In this document: piece by piece, positions 3,155 to 32,344 of the stretch | How the letters are laid out: each line of letters begins with the position of its first letter | Position numbering within the stretch: position 1 is the first letter of the stretch | Source of the DNA: a virus | Lineage: Duplodnaviria; Heunggongvirae; Uroviricota; Caudoviricetes | Direction: 5' to 3' (one strand) | Virus record (IMG/VR): IMGVR_UViG_2541047812_000003 | Length of the DNA: 37,695 nt | Program-made: the position numbers and the translations under genes | Notes under the pieces: model-generated | The model's database searches: none | What the model saw: the letters and a program-made list of their open reading frames with translations, nothing else | What the model was told of the DNA's origin: nothing

Positions 3155-3516
3155 TATGCTCCAGCCTCCGGTGCTTTTGGCATTACTGCCCAGTGAGTGA
3201 TATTGACGTTTTCAAGGTCCCCGACCTGAAATGTCCACTGCCATTCTCCGGTTTCTTTTTGTCCCCAGGTGTACCAGAGAGAACGCCAGCCAATTAGCCA
3301 GCCTTCTCCGTTAGCATCGAATAACAAAACACTTTCATTTGCTGGTGGCAGTTCAGTTGACACTGGTATTACTTTGTTTTCCTGTGCTGCACATTTAGCT
3401 TCAAGCGCATCGAATTTACGCACCAGGTATTCAGCATCTGTTTCATTTACTTTCAGATCTCGCGGTACACATCTCCCACGAAGAAACCCTTCCATTTCGA
3501 AAACATTCATGCGCAT
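3154..3516 (-). CDS. DUF551-like phage protein (YfdS-like)
   Basis: 120-aa ORF with C-terminal ...ITHWAVMPKAPE resembling the DUF551 HWMPLP-type ending; GGAG Shine-Dalgarno 8 nt upstream of ATG; stop/start overlap with neighbours. Confidence 0.6.
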   Translation of the reverse strand: MRMNVFEMEGFLRGRCVPRDLKVNETDAEYLVRKFDALEAKCAAQENKVIPVSTELPPANESVLLFDANGEGWLIGWRSLWYTWGQKETGEWQWTFQVGDLENVNITHWAVMPKAPEAGA

Positions 3517-4043
3517 TTGCGTAACTCCGATAACTCGTTAAAGCGTTCCATAAACATCCCGTAGGCATGGCCCGGTGCCAGTGGAATCACGTTGAACATC
3601 TCTGTTGCCGGGATACCTTCCAGTACAGGCCAGAAAGAGCCATCATCAAGCCCGAGATCGCGGCGTTCGGTTGCCAGCATGATGAGATCGGCATATTTCA
3701 CGGGCGTACTCATAACTGGGGGTAACCCGTATTTCTCACGGATTACGGCGTCTATTTTTTCTTCCATTTGTTTATAGTCAGGAAGAAGGCGTTTCAGTGG
3801 TGCGGGAATGTCCTGGCAATACGCTTCTGTTGCATCATGCATTAACGCTTCAAAAGCAAATTCCTGCGGCACCAACTGGCTGCAAAGAACCGCATGTTGG
3901 GCGACGCTGTAGAAGTGCGAAAGATGACCGGCAAAGCGACAGATATTTGAAAGGGAAACCGCGATATCGTTAATATCGATGTCGTCTTTATTTATCCTGT
4001 CATAATAAAAATGCTTCCCGGAAAAAGTTTTAATAAATGACAT
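3507..4043 (-). CDS. HD-domain phosphohydrolase (YfdR-like 5'-deoxynucleotidase)
   Basis: Start at internal ATG (MSFIKTFSGK...) preceded by GGAG, rather than the track GTG at 4070; contains H...H and the HD dyad (EALMHDATEAY) of HD hydrolases; 178 aa. Confidence 0.75.
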   Translation of the reverse strand: MSFIKTFSGKHFYYDRINKDDIDINDIAVSLSNICRFAGHLSHFYSVAQHAVLCSQLVPQEFAFEALMHDATEAYCQDIPAPLKRLLPDYKQMEEKIDAVIREKYGLPPVMSTPVKYADLIMLATERRDLGLDDGSFWPVLEGIPATEMFNVIPLAPGHAYGMFMERFNELSELRKCA

Positions 4044-4170: not shown

Positions 4171-4995
4171 TCAGGCGGTGAAAGTACCAATAAAGGTTTC
4201 TACTTTGCTGTCCTTGAATTTCTCAACAAGCAGATCACGAAATTCGTTAGCCATTTCTTCCTGCACCGCCTCCAGCTGAATAATGCGCAGAACCAGTACA
4301 GGACGATCGCCAGTGATAATACTGAGGCGTAATTTAAACGGACGTTCTTTCAGACCTTCAAACGGAACGCATTTAAATTCAAATGCCACTGGCATAATGT
4401 CTTTGGTCTTCGCTTCGACAGACTCCATCAGGGAGCGTTTGCCGCTGAAGTCATTATCTTCAAAATCAGCGGTCTGGTTTGCTTCAATCGTGATTTTACG
4501 GACAGCCGCAGCCGCTTTTGTTGCCTGAATAGCGTCACCATTAGCATCAAAGCCCACAAGATAGTCGGCCCAGTCTTCAATCCATTCTGCCAGTGACTTC
4601 TGGGAGTTACGCTCGCCGTTAACAGACAACAGAGCAGAGAACGGTGCTGTCTTTTTCAGTTTGAGTGTGGCGGTGTTATCTGCGTGACCTGGTTCATCAA
4701 TAGTACCCAGGTTAAGCATACTGACGGCACGCATATTATCAGCATCGATAAAGCAGCGGGTGCCTTCATCTGCAAGATCTTTAGAATAACGGGTAAAGTC
4801 ATCGATGCTGGCAGTGGAAAGCGCACCACGGAAACGGAAGCGATTTAAATTAAATTTTTCCAGATCATGAATGCGGAAATTCTCAGGCAATGCCACAGCA
4901 TCGGCACCAATCTTACTGATAATTTCATTAACACCCTGAGCAGAAATAAGGGCATGGATTTGATTAATTGCGGTTGCGTCTAAGTTCTGAGACAT
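4171..4995 (-). CDS. DUF2303/YfdQ-like phage protein
   Basis: 274-aa ORF with ATG and GAGGA Shine-Dalgarno; length and position match YfdQ of the CPS-53 early block (assignment from memory, no search run). Confidence 0.65.
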
Positions 4996-5061
4996 AATAA
5001 GTCCTCACTATATTAAAGATATTCAGTGATAAGATGAATAATTAGTTTATTAAAAACGATA

Positions 5062-5424
5062 TTAACGACCTGCTGCGCGGAGTTTTCCGTCAGGTTCACC
5101 GGCAAGAGTCAGTAATTGTCCCTGGTCTTCCTGCAGAATAGTCAGGCGACCACCGCGATTGACATACATCGGCGTTTCGGTGGTGTCTTCTTCGGAAATT
5201 TTCCCGCGGTTAGTCGGGCGAACATATGAGAGTTTGTGTTTGATTTTCACACGGTTCTCATCAAATGGTTCGATTTCCAGGTTGAGCGAGACCTTACCTT
5301 TGGTTTTCGTGTTCATCACACCGGAAGCGACTTCACTGAGAACTGCGCCGATTTTGGTTTCAAATACGCCGCCGTCCAGCTCCCCGATAAATGCCTGCAC
5401 ATCAGTACTGCGTTCGCTAGCCAT
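5062..5424 (-). CDS. phage early protein, 120 aa (YfdP-like)
   Basis: Start at internal ATG (MASERSTDVQAFIGELDGG...) preceded by GAGGAG; the upstream 106 codons of the track ORF are Cys/Arg-rich and not protein-like, and overlap the structured non-coding region. Confidence 0.55.
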   Translation of the reverse strand: MASERSTDVQAFIGELDGGVFETKIGAVLSEVASGVMNTKTKGKVSLNLEIEPFDENRVKIKHKLSYVRPTNRGKISEEDTTETPMYVNRGGRLTILQEDQGQLLTLAGEPDGKLRAAGR

Positions 5425-5472
5425 TTTGCTGCTCCTCATCATATCGACCCTGCAAGGTCGGTTGGTTTCTCC

Positions 5473-5561
5473 ACAAAACAGAGAAGAACACCTGCGGTGG
5501 CAGCCGCCCGGATGGATTGGGTTATGAGCCCGTCGTCCGGTGATGCTCTTCTCTGTTTTGT
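5473..5561. repeat. perfect 15-bp inverted repeat (ACAAAACAGAGAAGA / TCTTCTCTGTTTTGT) flanking a 59-nt GC-rich segment
   Basis: Read directly from the sequence; lies in a ~470 bp stretch (5425-5892) with no convincing ORF, alongside further hairpins (GGTACCAG...CTGGTACC) and GGTGCC direct repeats. Confidence 0.6.
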
Positions 5562-5825
5562 AAAAAGGACGGTACCAGCCGGAAGCAAGGGTACAAACTG
5601 GTACCTCCAGGACTACACACAGCATAAAGTTGTGGTGCCGGGTGCCTCCCGGTGCCTGGCGAAGGTTGCACACCAGACGGGTGGGTATCCACAGAAGGTC
5701 GACTGTCAGCCTCAACCTTAACCCGCGTGCGCTGAGCCGCATTCACCACAACGCTAAGGATTCTCTCTGGTTAAAAATACTTAGCTGTTATGTGCCTGCT
5801 TTTAGCCACATCAGGCGAGGTGGAC

Positions 5826-5877
5826 CTGGTTATTCCCCAACAACAAGGATTCGGTTAATCTGGTTATTCCCAACAAC
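5826..5877 (+). repeat. two direct repeats CTGGTTATTCC(C)CAACAAC spaced 34 bp, immediately upstream of the 5893 gene
   Basis: Seen in sequence; the second copy ends 15 nt before the ATG and abuts the AAAGGAAAAG ribosome-binding region. Confidence 0.5.
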
Positions 5878-5892
5878 GCAAAAGGAAAAGAA

Positions 5893-6327
5893 ATGTCCGG
5901 TAATATCTACACGCTGTACAAATCCCACTGTGAAAATGTTGGAAAGTATCGGGGCATTGAAATCAGTGGGGTAGTGTCATCAGTCGAAATAAGCAAAGTG
6001 GAATCAAGGGCAACATTACTTACTCTTCTGGACCTTGTCTTACATGAGCACCGGAAGAAATTCGGCACTCCCTATAATCAGTTGAATGGGAAAAAGGCTC
6101 TGGTTCACCTTATTCTGATGAAGCATCACTGGATGCCAAAACAGATTAATGAGATGAAATTTGATGAACTTCTTCTTTCAATTCAGGATGAACTCACACT
6201 TGATAAAATAAGCGTAACCGCCCAGAAATTTTTAGATTATCGAGACTGGAGATCACAAATTCATCACTTTGATGATTTTGACGAAAATGAATGGGATCCT
6301 AATTTGTCTGCACAATATCTAAAGTAA
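5893..6327 (+). CDS. hypothetical protein, 144 aa, low-GC orphan gene opposite to the early-left operon
   Basis: ATG with purine-rich Shine-Dalgarno; markedly AT-rich versus neighbours; no family recognised; followed by a plus-oriented intrinsic terminator near 6564-6590. Confidence 0.55.
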   Translation: MSGNIYTLYKSHCENVGKYRGIEISGVVSSVEISKVESRATLLTLLDLVLHEHRKKFGTPYNQLNGKKALVHLILMKHHWMPKQINEMKFDELLLSIQDELTLDKISVTAQKFLDYRDWRSQIHHFDDFDENEWDPNLSAQYLK

Positions 6328-6505
6328 CATCCTGTGATAAAACCGTGATTTCCTGATCCAGTTTTTTTAAGGAGTCTATTGTTTCCTGTCGATAAGACAG
6401 CACTTCACGAAGCTGGTTTATAGCTGCCAGCTTCTTTGCCATCCACTCGTAAATTTCCTCATTTGTGTATCCGGGCGCGACGATTGTGGGTTCTGTTTTG
6501 TGCAT
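6299..6505 (-). CDS. small hypothetical protein (68 aa), first gene of the leftward transcript
   Basis: Internal ATG (MHKTEPTIVAPGY...) preceded by a strong GAGGAGGTG Shine-Dalgarno; downstream of a consensus-like leftward promoter; predicted coiled-coil-like; 3' end overlaps the convergent 5893..6327 gene by 29 nt. Confidence 0.5.
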   Translation of the reverse strand: MHKTEPTIVAPGYTNEEIYEWMAKKLAAINQLREVLSYRQETIDSLKKLDQEITVLSQDVTLDIVQTN

Positions 6506-6563
6506 TTCACACCTCCTCAAGTTATCAGTTACTTGTTGATGGGGACCAGATTGTTAAAGAGCT

Positions 6564-6590
6564 AAGCGTCCTGTAGGGCGCTTTTTTGTT
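6564..6590 (+). terminator. candidate rho-independent terminator (plus orientation)
   Basis: AAGCGTCC-TGTA-GGGCGCTT hairpin followed by TTTTTTGTT; would terminate transcripts from the 5893..6327 gene. Confidence 0.45.
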
Positions 6591-6672
6591 GCTAACGAAT
6601 CACCCTAGACTTTATATGCCCCAGGCGGCTACTTCGTGGGCGTCCTGCCTGTTCGTTGTTTCTCTTGGGTAC

Positions 6673-6700
6673 ATTATGTATCTCATGGGTACATTGTCAA
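6673..6700 (-). promoter_or_regulatory. sigma70-type leftward promoter (PL-like) with overlapping direct repeats
   Basis: On the minus strand TTGACA-N16-CATAAT; GGGTACATT occurs twice (about 6667-6675 and 6687-6695, plus-strand reading), overlapping the -35/-10 region as candidate operator sites. Confidence 0.5.
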
Positions 6701-6703
6701 GTA

Positions 6704-6725
6704 TAAAAAAACCTGCCGAAGCAGG
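6704..6725 (-). terminator. rho-independent terminator downstream of the repressor gene
   Basis: Minus-strand hairpin CCTGC-TTCG-GCAGG followed by an 8-nt U-run (plus-strand A-run at 6704-6711), 15 bp after the repressor stop. Confidence 0.55.
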
Positions 6726-6739
6726 TTCATAAACATTGA

Positions 6740-7414
6740 TTAGGCTTTGATTTTGTATCTTCTTGGTTTTCCTGAGAAAATCACAGTTCCAATTATAGAG
6801 CAATTACCGTTGATCTTAATGTAAGGCTCAGGCCAGTTTGGGTTTAACGCTTTGAGATAACGCTGTGTCCCATCTTCTATCAACCTTTTGAAGGTGGTTT
6901 CACCTGTATCGTGCATCAATGCAATAACGTCGTCACCGTGGCAGGCAGGGACTTCGGGATCAACAAAAATCATGTCTCCAGGGCGGTACTCATCAATCAT
7001 TGAATCACCAATCACCCGCAAGATATAAGTCATTTCGCCACAGGGTACAGGGCAGGGGTAAGTTTCTGCTGTGCTCAAATCAACCTCAGAATAGCCAACT
7101 TCTTTCCATGCTCCGGCCTGTACCCATGATATGACAGGGACTAACGTTATTTGTTTGTTAGTGATTGAAACATCAGGTTTTTTTGTGATGTTCGTGGTCT
7201 GGTGTTCTTGATCAAGCCATCCGACAGGCAGGTCGAAACATTTTTCGATGTGCCGCGCCATGCTGTCACCGATATTTTTAGTAGCACCATCTCCCATAAA
7301 CCTGCTGGTCTGGGTTGGCTCGCGATCAATCATGGTGGCAAAGGAAGAATTCCCGCCAACACCATCTCTCAGTTTTCTGGCGTTAGACCGCCGGATGTCA
7401 TGGATTGTTTTCAT
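6740..7414 (-). CDS. CI-like prophage repressor (N-terminal HTH, C-terminal S24 LexA-type self-cleaving peptidase domain)
   Basis: 224 aa; C-terminal half carries ILRVIGDSMIDEYRPGDMIFVDP (Ser nucleophile in GDSM) and a downstream Lys region typical of the S24 family; divergent from a Cro-like gene. Confidence 0.85.
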   Translation of the reverse strand: MKTIHDIRRSNARKLRDGVGGNSSFATMIDREPTQTSRFMGDGATKNIGDSMARHIEKCFDLPVGWLDQEHQTTNITKKPDVSITNKQITLVPVISWVQAGAWKEVGYSEVDLSTAETYPCPVPCGEMTYILRVIGDSMIDEYRPGDMIFVDPEVPACHGDDVIALMHDTGETTFKRLIEDGTQRYLKALNPNWPEPYIKINGNCSIIGTVIFSGKPRRYKIKA

Positions 7415-7430
7415 AACGAAATTAAAACCT

Positions 7431-7449
7431 TTGTACCGATAAGGTACAA
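7431..7449. promoter_or_regulatory. operator-like palindrome TTGTACC-GATAA-GGTACAA in the repressor/cro divergent promoter region
   Basis: Perfect 7-bp inverted repeat with 5-bp spacer, 17 bp upstream of the repressor start codon; the GGTACA half-site recurs at the leftward promoter near 6667-6695. Confidence 0.45.
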
Positions 7450-7504
7450 GTATCTTGAAGGTTCATTTCAATCATGTAATATGTATATCGGAGGTACATA
7501 TTGT

Positions 7505-7705
7505 ATGAAAGCGTATTGGGACTCTTTAACCAAAGAACAGCAGGGCGAGTTGGCCGGAAAAGTTGGCTCAACACCTGGCTACTTACGGCTGGTTTTCAAT
7601 GGTTATAAAAAAGCCAGTTTTGTGCTGGCGAAAAAACTTGAGCAATGCACGTCAGGTGCAATTACGAAATCTGACTTAAGGCCGGATATCTATCCGAAAG
7701 ATTAA
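7505..7705 (+). CDS. Cro-like HTH regulator (66 aa; alternative start 7481)
   Basis: Small basic HTH-like protein (MKAYWDSLTKEQQGELAGKVGSTPGYLRLVFNGYKK...) transcribed divergently from the repressor; GGAGG upstream; track ORF 7202..7705 is over-extended into the repressor gene. Confidence 0.65.
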   Translation: MKAYWDSLTKEQQGELAGKVGSTPGYLRLVFNGYKKASFVLAKKLEQCTSGAITKSDLRPDIYPKD

Positions 7706-28505: not shown

Positions 28506-30330
28506 ATTTGAGCTTAAGGCGTTGATCACCGGTGTCGACAGGCTTTCTCCCGCGCTGTCGAAAATGCAAAAGAAAATCCGGGGATTTAAACGCCAGGCGG
28601 AAGAAGCGTCACAGGGTGGGCTGGCGCTTGGTGGCGGACTGGCAGCGGGTCTGACGCTTTCCCTGAAATCTTATGCCGATCAGGAAAACGCCGCCACCGG
28701 GCTGAAAGTCGCCATGATGGATGCGAACGGCGAGGTTGGAAAGAGCTTTCAGGACATCAATAAACTGGCTATTGGCCTGGGTAACCAGCTACCCGGTACA
28801 ACGGCTGATTTCCAGAACATGATGCAGATGCTGGTGCGTCAGGGGATCCCGGCAGAAAACATTCTGGGTGGTGTGGGTAAAGCGACAGCTTATCTTGCGG
28901 TACAACTGAAAAAAACACCGGAAGCGGCTGCTGAGTTTGCTGCAAAGATGCAGGATGCTACCGGAACGGCGTCAGAAGACATGATGGGGCTGTTCGACAC
29001 TATCCAGAAGGCGTTTTATCTGGGCGTTGACGATACCAACATGTTGTCCTTCTTCACTAAAACCAGTTCTGTTCTGAAGATGGTGAACAAGGATGGTCTT
29101 CAGGCTGCGCAGAGCCTTGCCCCCATCAGCGTCATGATGGATCAGATGGGGATGAACGGGGAGTCGGCAGGTAATGCCCTGCGAAAAGTTATCCAGTCCG
29201 GATTAAGCGTTAAGAAAATCAGGGACGTTAATAAAGTTATGGCCCGCCAGAAACTCGGGGTACAGCTCGATTTTACTGACGGCAAAGGAAGTTTTGGCGG
29301 TCTTGATAACATGTTCAGGCAACTGGCAAAGCTGCGAAAACTGACCGACGTTAAGCGAACAGGTGTACTTAAGGCAATATTTGGTGATGATGCCGAAACC
29401 CTTCAGGTGGTCAATGCACTAATCGATAAAGGAAAGGATGGCTACGATCAGATCCAGCAGAAGATGAATAAACAGGCCAGCCTGAATAAACGTGTTCAGG
29501 CACAGCTTGGTACGCTGTCCAACCTGTGGGAGGCAATGACAGGGACCGCAACTAACGGCCTTGCGGCTATTGGCGGCGCATTTTCTGGTGACGCTAAAAA
29601 TATCACGCAATGGCTGGGGGAGTTGGGGGAGAAATTCACGAAATTTGCGGATGAAAATCCCCGGGTTATTCGCGGCGTCGTCGGGCTTGCTGCCGGTCTT
29701 GCGATTCTGAAACTGGGATTGATGGGCGTGGGCAGTGCCATCAGTATTGTCAGCAGGATTATGTCGATGACGCCGATAGGCATGATTGCGACGGCGATTG
29801 CTCTGGCTGCGGGATTAATTATCACTAACTGGGATGTTGTCGGACCTTATTTTAAGAAGCTCTGGGAAACCATTGGTCCTTATTTTGAGGCTGGCTGGGA
29901 ACTTCTGAAGAAAGTTTTTGCCTGGTCGCCGCTGGGAATGGTGATCAATAACTGGGGACCGGTTGTTAAGTGGTTTCAGGATATGTGGGACAAGCTGAAG
30001 CCAATTATTGAGTGGTTTACCGACAGTTCCGGTGACACGGTCGATGCCATTAACTCTGCGCAGTGGGGCGCGGGTGCTTATGATGCTTATGGGACGGGAA
30101 TACCGGCGCGGGGATACACACCTTATCCGGCGGTGGATCCGGCTCAGTCAAACAACGCCTCCGATGCCACAGGCTCGAATCCCTTCATGATTAACAAAGC
30201 TTCTGTGCCAAAAGTTGATGGTGAGATCAAGGTATCTTTTGTGAATTCGCCTCCGGGTATGCGGGTTATGGAAACGCGATCCAGCGGTTTTGATGTCAGC
30301 CATGATGTTGGCTATACGCGGTTCAGGTAG
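28498..30330 (+). CDS. tail tape measure protein
   Basis: 610 aa; helical/Ala-Gly-rich with a hydrophobic segment near residue 400; follows the frameshifted chaperone pair. Confidence 0.85.
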   Translation: MAEFELKALITGVDRLSPALSKMQKKIRGFKRQAEEASQGGLALGGGLAAGLTLSLKSYADQENAATGLKVAMMDANGEVGKSFQDINKLAIGLGNQLPGTTADFQNMMQMLVRQGIPAENILGGVGKATAYLAVQLKKTPEAAAEFAAKMQDATGTASEDMMGLFDTIQKAFYLGVDDTNMLSFFTKTSSVLKMVNKDGLQAAQSLAPISVMMDQMGMNGESAGNALRKVIQSGLSVKKIRDVNKVMARQKLGVQLDFTDGKGSFGGLDNMFRQLAKLRKLTDVKRTGVLKAIFGDDAETLQVVNALIDKGKDGYDQIQQKMNKQASLNKRVQAQLGTLSNLWEAMTGTATNGLAAIGGAFSGDAKNITQWLGELGEKFTKFADENPRVIRGVVGLAAGLAILKLGLMGVGSAISIVSRIMSMTPIGMIATAIALAAGLIITNWDVVGPYFKKLWETIGPYFEAGWELLKKVFAWSPLGMVINNWGPVVKWFQDMWDKLKPIIEWFTDSSGDTVDAINSAQWGAGAYDAYGTGIPARGYTPYPAVDPAQSNNASDATGSNPFMINKASVPKVDGEIKVSFVNSPPGMRVMETRSSGFDVSHDVGYTRFR

Positions 30331-30411
30331 TGTACAAAATGATTAATGTGTTTTTGTCTGGCATAATTTGGGTTTTCAGCTTTAAGTAGTTAATATAATC
30401 ATTCCTTACAA

Positions 30412-30924
30412 ATGATTGAAGGGATGATTATGCGTATCTTTGTTTTTTTTATATCTGCACTTTTATCTTTTAACTTGGCTGCGGAAGAGTGTAAGTTCAG
30501 CTTTAATGAGTCAGAATTAATCTCTTCTATAGGTATTGCACCAGTTAAGCAAGAGATAATAAAGGATGAAGGAATAACTAAGCGGCAATATGAATTCAGA
30601 AGAGAATTATCTTCTGAAGAAATGCTTAGTGATGACGCTGATGAAAAATATGAGCCGCAGTTTTATATATCTGTTTATAATCCATTATGCCCACAAAAGG
30701 TTATTGTTTGGTTTTTCAAAGACAATAAAAACACAATGGATTTAAGTAATGAGGTCCTTGCTGGTAGAGCGTTCAAGTATTTAACTGGTGTTAATGAAAG
30801 TATTTTTGAAAATAAAATGAAAAAGTTTTTAAAGGTACAGTCATTTGAATCTTTTGATGAAAGGACAGATTCTAAATTTATAAAGAGTGGTGATATTTAT
30901 TCCATTGATGTTCAACTCAGATAG
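30412..30924 (+). CDS. hypothetical secreted protein (signal peptide), low-GC moron inside the tail module (likely start 30430)
   Basis: MRIFVFFISALLSFNLAAEE... is signal-peptide-like; strongly AT-rich gene with a TATAAT -10 element upstream (~30394-30399) and a terminator-like structure downstream; no family recognised. Confidence 0.55.
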   Translation: MIEGMIMRIFVFFISALLSFNLAAEECKFSFNESELISSIGIAPVKQEIIKDEGITKRQYEFRRELSSEEMLSDDADEKYEPQFYISVYNPLCPQKVIVWFFKDNKNTMDLSNEVLAGRAFKYLTGVNESIFENKMKKFLKVQSFESFDERTDSKFIKSGDIYSIDVQLR

Positions 30925-30943
30925 TAATTAAAAATATTAGGTT

Positions 30944-31000
30944 CCCGCCACATCTTCTGCGATGTAAATAATTGACAAAGCAGATTTGGCGGGTTTTTTT
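30944..31000 (+). terminator. candidate terminator after the moron gene
   Basis: CCCGCCA ... TGGCGGG inverted repeat (with an inner CATC...GATG hairpin) ending in TTTTTTT, 20 bp after the moron stop. Confidence 0.4.
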
Positions 31001-31015
31001 GTATCCGGAGTTTAT

Positions 31016-32344
31016 ATGACGTGGAAAGACAGGCTTCAGGATGCGTCATTTCGCGGCGTACCGTTTAAGGTTGAAGAAGAAAGTGCGGGAACCGGTCGCC
31101 GTGTGGAAACACACGAATATCCGAACCGCGACAAGCCCTATACCGAAGACCTGGGAAAAGTCACTTTCCGCCCGTCCATCACAGCTTATGTGGTGGGAGA
31201 TGACTGCTTTGACCAGCGCGATCGCCTGATTGAAGCGCTGAATAAACCCGGTCCCGGCACGCTTGTCCACCCGACATATGGTGAGCTGAAAGTCTGTGTT
31301 GACGGGGAAGTTCGGGTCAGCACATCGAAAAGTGAAGGGCGTATTGTCCGCTTTGACCTGAAGTTTGTCGAAGCAGGAGAACTCTCTTACCCCACATCAG
31401 GTGCGGCGACGGCGCAAACGCTGATGTCATCCTGTTCTGCACTGGATGACTGCATCAGTGATAGCTTCAGTGGTTTCAGTATCGATGGCGTGGCAGATTT
31501 TGTGCAGAACGACGTCGTCGGTAATGCCAGCACAATGCTTGGGTATGTTTCTGATGCGATGAAAGTGGTGGATTCTGCCGTATCGGATGCCGCCAGGCTG
31601 TTGCAGGGGGATATCTCGGTACTTCTGCCGCCGCCATCGTCAGGCAAAAATTTCGTTGAGCAGGTGCAGAAAATGTGGCGTACCGGGAAACGCCTTTATG
31701 GTAACGCCAGCGACCTGGTCACCATGATCAAAACGCTTTCCGGTGTCAGCCTCGGCAGCGATCTGCAACCGCGCGGCGTCTGGAAAACGGACAGTAAAAC
31801 CACCGCCACGGCGACGCAGCAGCGTAACGTGGTTGCCAGCACCCTTCGTACGACCGCAATCAGCGAAGCGGCGTATGCCGTCACCCGATTGCCTGCGCCA
31901 ACAACTTCCGCGGTGATGCAGAATTCCGCAGTGGGGCAGGCAACAACACCTGCGCAGAGCACTGGCTGGCCTTCCGTCACGCATCCGGCACTGAACAATG
32001 CACCGGCGGTGAAAAACACGGTTGACCTGCCGACGTGGGAAGAACTGACTGACATTCGCGACACACTGAATACGGCAATTGATAAGGAGTTGTCCCGTAC
32101 AACCAGTGATGCGCTGTTTCTGGCGCTGCGCCGGGTGAAAGCAGATCTGAATGCGGATATCAACACGCGCCTTGAACAGTCTGCACGGATCATTCAGCGC
32201 ACACCGGATGAGGTTTTACCCGCGCTGGTGCTGGCGGCGACCTGGTTTGATAACGCGGCGCGTGACGCGGACATTATCCGGCGTAATGCCATTACGCATC
32301 CCGGCTTTGTGCCGGTGATCCCTCTGAAGGTGCCAGTGCAATGA
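31016..32344 (+). CDS. DNA circulation protein (Mu gpN-like)
   Basis: Start at internal ATG (MTWKDRLQDASFRGVPF...) with GGAG Shine-Dalgarno, rather than the track TTG at 30986; N-terminal region typical of Mu gpN-type proteins. Confidence 0.75.
   Translation: MTWKDRLQDASFRGVPFKVEEESAGTGRRVETHEYPNRDKPYTEDLGKVTFRPSITAYVVGDDCFDQRDRLIEALNKPGPGTLVHPTYGELKVCVDGEVRVSTSKSEGRIVRFDLKFVEAGELSYPTSGAATAQTLMSSCSALDDCISDSFSGFSIDGVADFVQNDVVGNASTMLGYVSDAMKVVDSAVSDAARLLQGDISVLLPPPSSGKNFVEQVQKMWRTGKRLYGNASDLVTMIKTLSGVSLGSDLQPRGVWKTDSKTTATATQQRNVVASTLRTTAISEAAYAVTRLPAPTTSAVMQNSAVGQATTPAQSTGWPSVTHPALNNAPAVKNTVDLPTWEELTDIRDTLNTAIDKELSRTTSDALFLALRRVKADLNADINTRLEQSARIIQRTPDEVLPALVLAATWFDNAARDADIIRRNAITHPGFVPVIPLKVPVQ

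Follow-up and report, generated by a model that had tools for sequence, protein, structure and literature searches.

A probable mobile cassette of two convergent genes in a prophage cargo slot beside the leftward promoter

In the virus record IMGVR_UViG_2541047812_000003 (Caudoviricetes; 37,695 nucleotides, the whole of which is called the window hereafter), an AT-rich gene for a protein of 144 amino acids (aa), gene A, lies just left of the repressor and of the leftward promoter PL, and is oriented against the surrounding early operon. We consider it highly probable that A belongs to a mobile two-gene cassette housed in a prophage cargo slot, in which A is expressed during lysogeny (by homology with a relative) and its convergent 68-aa neighbour, gene B, depends on a lytic promoter. 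The cassette would then be a self-contained accessory unit, or “moron”, of an SfIV-type lambdoid prophage, inserted between PL and the early-left genes, and the apparent orphan would be one half of a conserved convergent pair, the geometry of which is tied to the lysogenic versus the lytic state. The loci compared with the window bear L-numbers, and the features of the cassette are the following.

5824–6593, unstranded: variable cassette, 770 bp, 40.6% guanine + cytosine (GC), not in phage SfV
5893–6327, plus strand: gene A, ECs1072-family protein, 144 aa, with a Shine–Dalgarno sequence (SD) AAGGA at 5882–5886
6505–6299, minus strand: gene B, acidic protein (PHROG 1744), 68 aa, with a strong SD GGAGG at 6512–6516; first gene downstream of PL
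6299–6327, unstranded: overlap of the 3' ends of A and B, 29 nt, including part of the near-palindrome TGGGATCCTA
6564–6590, plus strand: intrinsic terminator with an 8-bp stem, loop TGTA and T6 (hairpin 6564–6583, then TTTTTTG)

The gene, its low GC content (38.6% vs. 51.5% for the window) and its overlap with B (29 nt) bear out the first-pass annotation, but B is not incidental. When diverse homologues of A (26–72% identity to window A) were inspected for a partner, 12 out of 13 distinct loci were found to carry a small gene B that runs towards A from the other strand, with 29–317 nt shared between the two 3' ends (a range taken from ten tabulated loci). These paired loci include the window and its E. 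albertii and E. coli variants, a Xenorhabdus prophage, three metagenomic prophages, a Serratia contig, Serratia quinivorans, Salmonella phage ST64B, Klebsiella phage KPP5665-2 and the E. coli O157 Sakai prophage Sp4, which is the home of the founding family member, ECs1072. Sampling from the side of B gave the same arrangement: all three clusters (Klebsiella, Citrobacter and Enterobacter; nine places) have a convergent overlapping A, with A proteins of 132–152 aa that match the A profile at E-values of 1e-41 to 1e-50. B is probably a coiled-coil protein, the probable coiled coil following an N-terminal motif (P, about 14 residues, then E-[LIV]-x-x-W-[LM]) common to the loci. A hidden Markov model (HMM) built only from the B proteins encoded close to gene Q ranked the PL-proximal ones as the top non-training matches among 1100 open reading frames (ORFs), window B scoring an E-value of 3e-4 with noise starting at 0.88, and the reciprocal test agrees. 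Moreover, the divergence of A correlates with that of B (Mantel r = 0.72, p = 2e-4) when pairwise identities are taken over A and over the non-overlapping part of B, its first 60 residues. Window B matches PHROG 1744, a family whose function is not known, over its full length (1–68/68, E 1.5e-33), and a profile search returned 229 clusters, with no functional annotation among the members listed. Judging from these sequence comparisons, B is a conserved and co-inherited partner of A.

A Dam site, GATC, lies within the near-palindrome TGGGATCCTA (6292–6301) that reaches into the overlap, and this near-palindrome also codes for the invariant W134-D-P of A. In the longer B alleles of the loci close to Q, the corresponding perfect palindrome TGGGATCCCA would encode a W-D-P of B on the opposite strand too, and window B stops at TAG where these longer alleles have TGG.

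The A/B pair is found at three prophage positions: close to PL, in the PR operon and downstream of Q. It stands directly after PL, next to the repressor, in the window, L011 and L022–L025, and a few genes into the early-left operon in L009 and L012; in Sakai Sp4, it sits in the PR operon, between a cII-like gene and the replication gene O; in ST64B, L014 and Klebsiella, Citrobacter and Enterobacter prophages, it follows Q and precedes the holin gene. At every locus, B is sense to the lytic operon and encountered first, while A is antisense. In the Q-type loci, a strong hairpin followed by a T-run precedes the start of B by 20–50 nt on the B strand, where tR' is expected, and ST64B has a PR'-like promoter (TTGAAA-16-TATGAT) straight after its Q-like gene. 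Since B reads with the lytic operon and a tR'-like hairpin precedes the Q-type B genes, B should be produced only when PL is derepressed, PR is active or Q antiterminates. As for the A transcript of the window, it would be antisense to all of B, including its SD, if it ends at 6564–6590. In ST64B (L004), the annotation of sb50 begins so early that it takes in the PR'-like promoter and the tR'-like terminator (3430–3610, minus strand); the true start of B is probably the ATG at 3466 (MQDGKQQPYFF...). The tR'-like hairpin of this phage has a T-run on the opposite strand too and may end the A transcript as well.

Expression was assessed from published data on ST64B, as resident in S. Typhimurium D23580. 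Its gene STMMW_20121 is the ST64B homologue of A because the coordinates match exactly (2090066–2090500, 435 nt); STMMW_20131 (Sb50) is B and STMMW_20141 (Sb49) is the Q-like gene, a constant offset of 2087221 fitting all three. This homologue, which is 30–40% identical to window A and lacks an annotation in the phage record AY055382, has its own promoter and is transcribed in lysogens in which the flanking lytic genes are silent, for which Owen et al. 2020 drew attention to it (PMC7067206). It reaches 70–269 transcripts per million (TPM) in 16 of 17 conditions, with 4.9 in late stationary phase, while the holin gene yields 0.3–33 TPM and the Q-like gene 1.5–7 TPM (PMC7067206 Table S5). Under shocks that induce ST64B, A falls from 269 TPM (InSPI2) to 113 (peroxide) and 105 (nitric oxide), whereas B rises from 108 to 148 and 258, respectively (PMC7067206). 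Regarding the claim that A is transcribed against the operon, its orientation stands, and its transcription in the window would follow by extension from this homologue, to which the expression evidence belongs.

The same layout could serve as a lysis–lysogeny safety device, B being a lytic effector (host take-over or growth arrest) and the A protein, together with its antisense mRNA, restraining leaky B. B is indeed always promoter-proximal in the lytic unit, the A transcript is placed to cover B fully, the module stands between a lytic promoter and critical lytic genes at all three positions, and A and B shift oppositely on ST64B induction. However, SfV and related prophages with other cargo do without B, so the lytic cycle can dispense with B; the repressors that accompany the cassette are of at least four unrelated kinds; at about 100–270 TPM in lysogens, A is more abundant than covering the leak of a repressed promoter requires; and one locus, L010, keeps A without B. 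We judge this explanation unlikely, and equally so its extension, according to which the convergent transcription of A insulates the downstream lytic genes from read-through.

Gene A itself is not new, because its family is catalogued and its ST64B member has already been flagged as a candidate accessory gene. The first-pass annotation had recognised no family, but A matches the NCBIfam model NF033230 (“ECs1072 family phage-associated protein”) at 157.8 bits (cut-off 70, E 1.7e-46; residues 4–144 on model positions 2–142 of 142) and PHROG 5286 over its full length (1–144/144, E 1.5e-90), both of which are families without known function. A profile search of 1.84 billion representative proteins returned 76 clusters (46 at E < 1e-10), nearly all of them stand-alone proteins of 145–155 aa; a genome scan with a 4-sequence A alignment gave 3 loci only. 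Named members come from Escherichia, Xenorhabdus, Erwinia, Serratia and Limnobaculum, to which phage matches add Salmonella and Klebsiella, and those for which the source was looked up are Enterobacterales. The A protein of L009 belongs to a cluster named from Xenorhabdus poinarii, and a CsrA-family gene (L009 2–169, minus strand) lies directly upstream of this A homologue and divergent from it. In a 48-sequence alignment of the family, W134 is invariant, and L50, R54, L64, G66, A69 and H72 are nearly so.

The structure prediction that had been recommended for A gave, from this 48-sequence alignment, a confident all-alpha AlphaFold2 model (predicted local distance difference test 94.1, predicted template modelling score 0.88), but comparing it with PDB and BFVD structures identified no fold relative, and sequence searches of the PDB with the 4- and 48-sequence profiles returned nothing. 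A is predicted to be soluble and mildly acidic (isoelectric point 6.4), and neither its sequence nor its model displays a signal peptide or a recognisable DNA-binding or catalytic motif. Across A, B and the 48 aligned family members, Pfam yielded six scattered single-member matches, all below the curated cut-offs, while PADLOC-DB v2 gave 0 families for A and 0 for B at E-values up to 1. A toxin–antitoxin-like addiction module stabilising the prophage might be suspected from two small, linked and co-inherited genes on a mobile element, the antisense overlap of which recalls type I/III systems. Yet the two genes are convergent and not co-transcribed, neither A nor B matches a toxin–antitoxin family in Pfam or PADLOC, both proteins are mildly acidic, soluble and helical, without a toxin-like domain, and the pair is confined to lambdoid prophages at sites close to a lytic promoter, with only 1 of 433 E. 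coli matches on a plasmid. Such a module is, in our opinion, very improbable.

From 5700 to 6740, the window is 99.6% identical to Shigella phage SfIV (KC814930), in the GenBank record of which A is SfIV_36, a “hypothetical protein”, and B has no annotation. ORF-35 and ORF-36 of SfIV were reported as unique among the Shigella serotype-converting phages, with a function not known, and were named as candidates for virulence studies (PMC3851460). In line with this suggestion of the SfIV authors, A could be a host-directed fitness or virulence moron (e.g., a regulator or modulator of bacterial physiology), B being linked to it only by a shared mosaic block. The ST64B homologue is expressed constitutively in infection-relevant conditions and falls only in late stationary phase, ECs1072 is among the growth-phase-responsive genes on a Sakai microarray (PMC2241611), and the exact A allele occurs in 421 of 5426 complete E. 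coli genomes (about 8%). Mere hitch-hiking of B, however, leaves both the sense/antisense layout at three positions and the correlated divergence unexplained, and A bears no DNA-binding, secretion or enzymatic signature, which makes a purely host-directed role improbable to us. Our searches of the literature on ECs1072 and STMMW_20121 found no functional study.

The limits of the cassette are set by phage SfV, the cI and Cro of which are identical to those of the window: homology is restricted to window positions 4900–5823 and 6594–7500, so that the variable block extends from 5824 to 6593, i.e., almost exactly the span flagged by the first-pass annotation. At its place, SfV has a different minus-strand ORF (orf33, 97 aa) and a minus-strand terminator. 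The block has 40.6% GC (38.6% for A alone), and just 4.3% of the 770-nt segments of the window are as low. Among the complete E. coli genomes, 1060 of 5426 match part of the block and 408 of 5426 match at least 80% of it. Those sampled from the remaining 650 or so retain only its two ends, 5824–5877 (repeat 1, spacer and start of repeat 2, described below) and 6546–6593 (hairpin and T-run), between which a different plus-strand gene begins at the same start offset. In the E. coli prophages L017–L020, this alternative cargo is one of the following.

Alternative slot cargo: 171-aa coiled-coil protein with a C-terminal CxxC...CxxC zinc ribbon
Alternative slot cargo: 167-aa protein
Alternative slot cargo: 166-aa protein with a signal peptide and a weak LprI-like match

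None of these three proteins has a family match above threshold, and the B profile matches neither them nor SfV orf33. The reading as an accessory insert is borne out by this AT-rich block and by the other cargo that the slot holds in related prophages. The terminator and repeat 1 thus belong to the framework of the slot, the cargo being swapped between them, and the leader of the PL transcript is kept too. The region between cI and N of lambdoid phages was previously recognised as a hotspot of mosaic diversity (PMC8585504). The repressor that accompanies the A/B cassette is not always the same, at least four having been encountered, so the cassette does not belong to the immunity switch itself. 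In 50,697 phage records, it was found in temperate phages only.

The plus-strand terminator folds at -15.6 kcal/mol (z = -2.3), as opposed to only -8 kcal/mol on the minus strand. The hairpin announced by the first-pass annotation is thus present, but it is not private to A: it lies 237 nt past the stop codon of A, beyond the whole of B, and is the conserved right border of the slot, kept behind unrelated cargo in L017–L020. Altogether, the features expected of a moron are distributed as follows. The cassette is inserted between genes that are adjacent in relatives (SfV lacks 5824–6593, and other cargo is found elsewhere), its base composition is distinct from that of the window (40.6% vs. 51.5% GC), and a strand-specific terminator (hairpin 6564–6583 and T6) is present at the sequence level. 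As for a promoter of its own, the consensus scan detected none; a -10-like hexamer TAATCT is found 37 nt before the ATG, and the promoter of the ST64B homologue has been mapped. The following elements lie upstream of A.

5806–5823, plus strand: backbone motif CCACATCAGGCGAGGTGG, adjoining the cassette on its left; also precedes distant homologues
5826–5844, plus strand: repeat 1 CTGGTTATTCCCCAACAAC, conserved left border of the slot
5856–5861, plus strand: candidate -10 hexamer TAATCT, in the spacer between the repeats
5860–5877, plus strand: repeat 2 CTGGTTATTCCCAACAAC, the cassette's own copy

The two repeats are present as previously noticed, spaced by 34 nt from start to start, for a chance expectation of 0.01 for the 18-mer in the window. 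Most of the distant A homologues (e.g., L011, L016 and Sakai) have one C/A-rich leader unit where the window has two; repeat 2 aligns with the single-copy leaders of these three loci, and the backbone motif CCACATCAGGCGAGGTGG aligns with CCACCTCAGGCGGCAGTGG upstream of A in L011, L016 and L008. In L017–L020, repeat 1 and the 15-nt spacer are identical in spite of the unrelated cargo, while repeat 2 decays by cargo type into CTGGATATCCCCAACAAC, into CTTGATACCCCCAATAAC or to absence. Because copy 1 is shared with unrelated cargo and copy 2 decays, we read the repeats as a recombination junction: they are better explained as a duplicated promoter/leader segment at the edge of the cassette than as an established protein-binding array, and the duplication would, in our reading, have been left behind when cassettes recombined within a promoter/leader that they had in common. 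Repeat 2 is probably the 5' leader of the A mRNA. A TAnnnT hexamer occurs 33–45 nt upstream of the A start in 15/15 loci, extended to TGnTAnnnT in 10/15 loci and reading TATAAT in Sakai; if TAATCT is the -10 element of the window, repeat 1 spans a poor -35 region.

The first-pass annotation had instead considered the repeats as a site for a regulator, in which case a DNA-binding protein of the host or of a phage would control A. Chance would hardly produce two copies of 18–19 nt at a spacing of 34 nt, or about three helical turns, and copy 1 would overlap the -35 region of a proposed promoter that is itself devoid of a good -35. Nevertheless, only one copy stands at this place in distant homologues, copy 1 together with the spacer persists unchanged beside unrelated cargo while copy 2 decays with it, and the repeat units have neither dyad symmetry nor a resemblance to the cI operators. 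We find a regulator-binding array decidedly unlikely. A role of the repeats in RNA structure was also considered and dropped, the fold of the upstream region having a z-score of +1.4 relative to shuffled sequences.

Taking the cassette as a lysogeny-expressed A paired with a lytic-promoter-dependent B, its operation can be sketched. In the lysogen, cI would shut PL, and A would be made from a weak promoter, with its -10 element (TAATCT, 5856–5861) between the repeats; its mRNA would run antisense over all of B and stop at the 6564–6590 terminator. Upon induction, PL would fire, B would be made first, and transcription from PL, running antisense through A, would shut A down. A would be a cytoplasmic protein acting in the lysogen on incoming phages, and B its cognate lytic-phase neutraliser, sparing the resident phage. 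Of the two repeat copies, one would come from the slot and the other from the cassette, left there by cassette exchange. That A mediates exclusion or abortive infection, with B as the antidote of the resident phage, is a possibility to which we grant a little less than an even chance; it is suggested by the position of the pair, the opposite expression states of the two genes, the restriction to temperate phages and the independence from the immunity type. Superinfection exclusion or defence, as proposed by the first-pass annotation, is a reasonable hypothesis, founded on position and expression logic. More doubtful is the wider proposal that A/B is a new two-protein prophage system, moving as a unit, in which A blocks phages or marks lysogeny and B is its antagonist; it is with similar caution that we suggest that convergent overlapping transcription would hard-wire A and B to opposite prophage states.

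Several observations weigh against this account. A consensus scan detected no plus-strand sigma-70 promoter upstream of window A, and the candidate TAATCT has neither a TG extension nor a credible -35. An A-strand terminator beyond B was recognised, with the criteria used here, in only 4 of 10 loci. L010, with A and no B, is the sole exception to the pairing among the 13 loci, one B allele is frameshifted in its C-terminal half, such that B may be dispensable, and the alternative cargo genes of the slot have no B-like partner. The annotated Sb50, i.e., B, is also at about 100 TPM in ST64B lysogens (PMC7067206); as its over-long annotation covers the leader from PR' to tR', this signal may be a constitutive short PR' RNA. 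Finally, no functional or structural homology stands behind the proposed exclusion and antidote roles.

On the right, the cassette is bordered by the regulatory region of the phage.

6594–6655, minus strand: leader of the PL transcript, part of the slot backbone, outside the cassette
6656–6674 and 6676–6694, minus strand: two 19-nt cI operators, TTGTTTCTCTTGGGTACAT and ATGTATCTCATGGGTACAT, overlapping the near-consensus PL
6700–6673, minus strand: promoter PL, TTGACA-16-CATAAT (TTGACA 6700–6695, CATAAT 6678–6673), 11 of 12 consensus positions
6740–7414, minus strand: cI repressor (S24 peptidase), with its own terminator at 6709–6728 (minus strand)

Both PL operators share the pattern xTGTAYC-N5-GGTACAx with the OR sites 7431–7449 and 7481–7499, and TGTAYC-N5-GGTACA (including OR 7432–7448) has 3 matches for 0.01 expected by chance. 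The leftward promoter is identified as PL/OL because its two operators follow the OR operator pattern, and this places A just left of the repressor and of PL, in agreement with the first-pass annotation. To the right of cI come Cro and then a CII-like gene; to the left of the cassette are homologues of yfdP, yfdQ (DUF2303) and yfdR (HD phosphohydrolase), xis and int. The PL leader, of about 60 nt, is kept among prophages with at least four different sets of repressor and operators. It shows no significant fold (z = +0.75 vs. shuffled) and no Rfam match; as these phages have no N homologue, a cis-acting role in read-through is conceivable, though unsupported.

An Rfam scan of 4900–7600 found nothing inside the cassette, its sole match being a sub-threshold one beside it, to the prophage small RNA STnc100 (RF02076), which is matched over its full length at 5560–5782 on the minus strand (38.4 bits vs. 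a gathering score of 47, E 3.6e-6). This region lies on the path of the PL transcript, between the cassette and the yfdP-like gene, and ends in a strong minus-strand terminator (about 5565–5610, -21.6 kcal/mol, then U5). STnc100 and PasD have been treated as related prophage small RNAs (bioRxiv 10.64898/2026.05.13.724894). Two ORFs of the SfIV GenBank record, SfIV_34 (226 aa, 5062–5742, minus strand) and SfIV_35 (114 aa, 5630–5974, plus strand), look over-annotated. Both overlap the STnc100-like region and the repeats, the PHROG matches of SfIV_34 span residues 101–225 only, and SfV has an annotated orf32 of 120 aa. Elsewhere in the window, two patches (about 14750–15800 and 30150–31100) have a GC content of 33–35%, lower than that of the cassette, and are probably other accessory inserts; the SfIV paper located a moron between Q and the lysis genes.

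Prophages of Salmonella, Klebsiella, Citrobacter, Serratia and Xenorhabdus harbour relatives of A, and a function or a recognisable fold is known for no member of the family. With B as its partner, A is no longer just a “hypothetical protein” but part of a system that can be tested. If A does protect lysogens and B does provide self-immunity, they would form a new small defence system with a protein antidote, in which overlapping convergent transcription would serve as a state switch. In addition, the cargo-swapping slot beside PL in SfV/KplE1-like prophages could be mined for more accessory genes. We have not found described the A/B pair, its fixed orientation relative to lytic promoters at three positions, the framework of the slot or the apparent lack of a fold relative for A.

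Several known systems invite comparison. The first is the ECs1072 family (PHROG 5286) itself, including STMMW_20121, which resembles A in sequence, size and placement antisense to lytic genes; the databases and the ST64B paper nonetheless treat it as a single gene, and neither the partner B nor the three-position geometry is described there. In SfV, the orf33 region occupies the same slot between PL and the early-left genes, beside identical cI and Cro, but its content differs, with a 97-aa minus-strand ORF, not matched by the B profile, and a minus-strand terminator. Roberts et al. in 2007 reportedly dealt with a transcription-termination-mediated immunity region of SfV.

Among exclusion functions, lambda rexAB is co-transcribed with cI, Rex and SieB act at the membrane, and P22 encodes Esc, an antidote to its own SieB. 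Like lambda rexAB and the sieB-esc genes of lambda and P22, A is close to cI and PL and, by homology, expressed in lysogens; compared by description and not sequence against sequence, it differs from Rex and SieB in being predicted soluble, and it has no detectable homology to them. A further parallel is BstA-aba, a prophage defence with cognate self-immunity (Owen et al. 2021, PMC8585504). Both are adjacent to the repressor and expressed in lysogens (A by homology), and in both (for A, under the exclusion hypothesis) a resident phage that turns lytic must possess a cognate element if it is to evade the defence it carries. There are differences, too: BstA reads in the same direction as the repressor gene, from a promoter common to both, immunity to it is provided by a DNA site and not by a protein, and BstA and A, for which defence is hypothetical, resemble each other neither in sequence nor in fold.

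Finally, morons of lambdoid phages, such as lambda bor and lom or those of HK97, lack the two convergent overlapping genes of the cassette, one of which would depend on a lytic promoter, and the promoter of A in the window is a putative one. Nevertheless, like them, the cassette is AT-rich, separates genes that are neighbours in relatives, has a terminator of its own, lies in a mosaic hotspot close to the repressor and would be expressed from the repressed prophage, as shown for a homologue.

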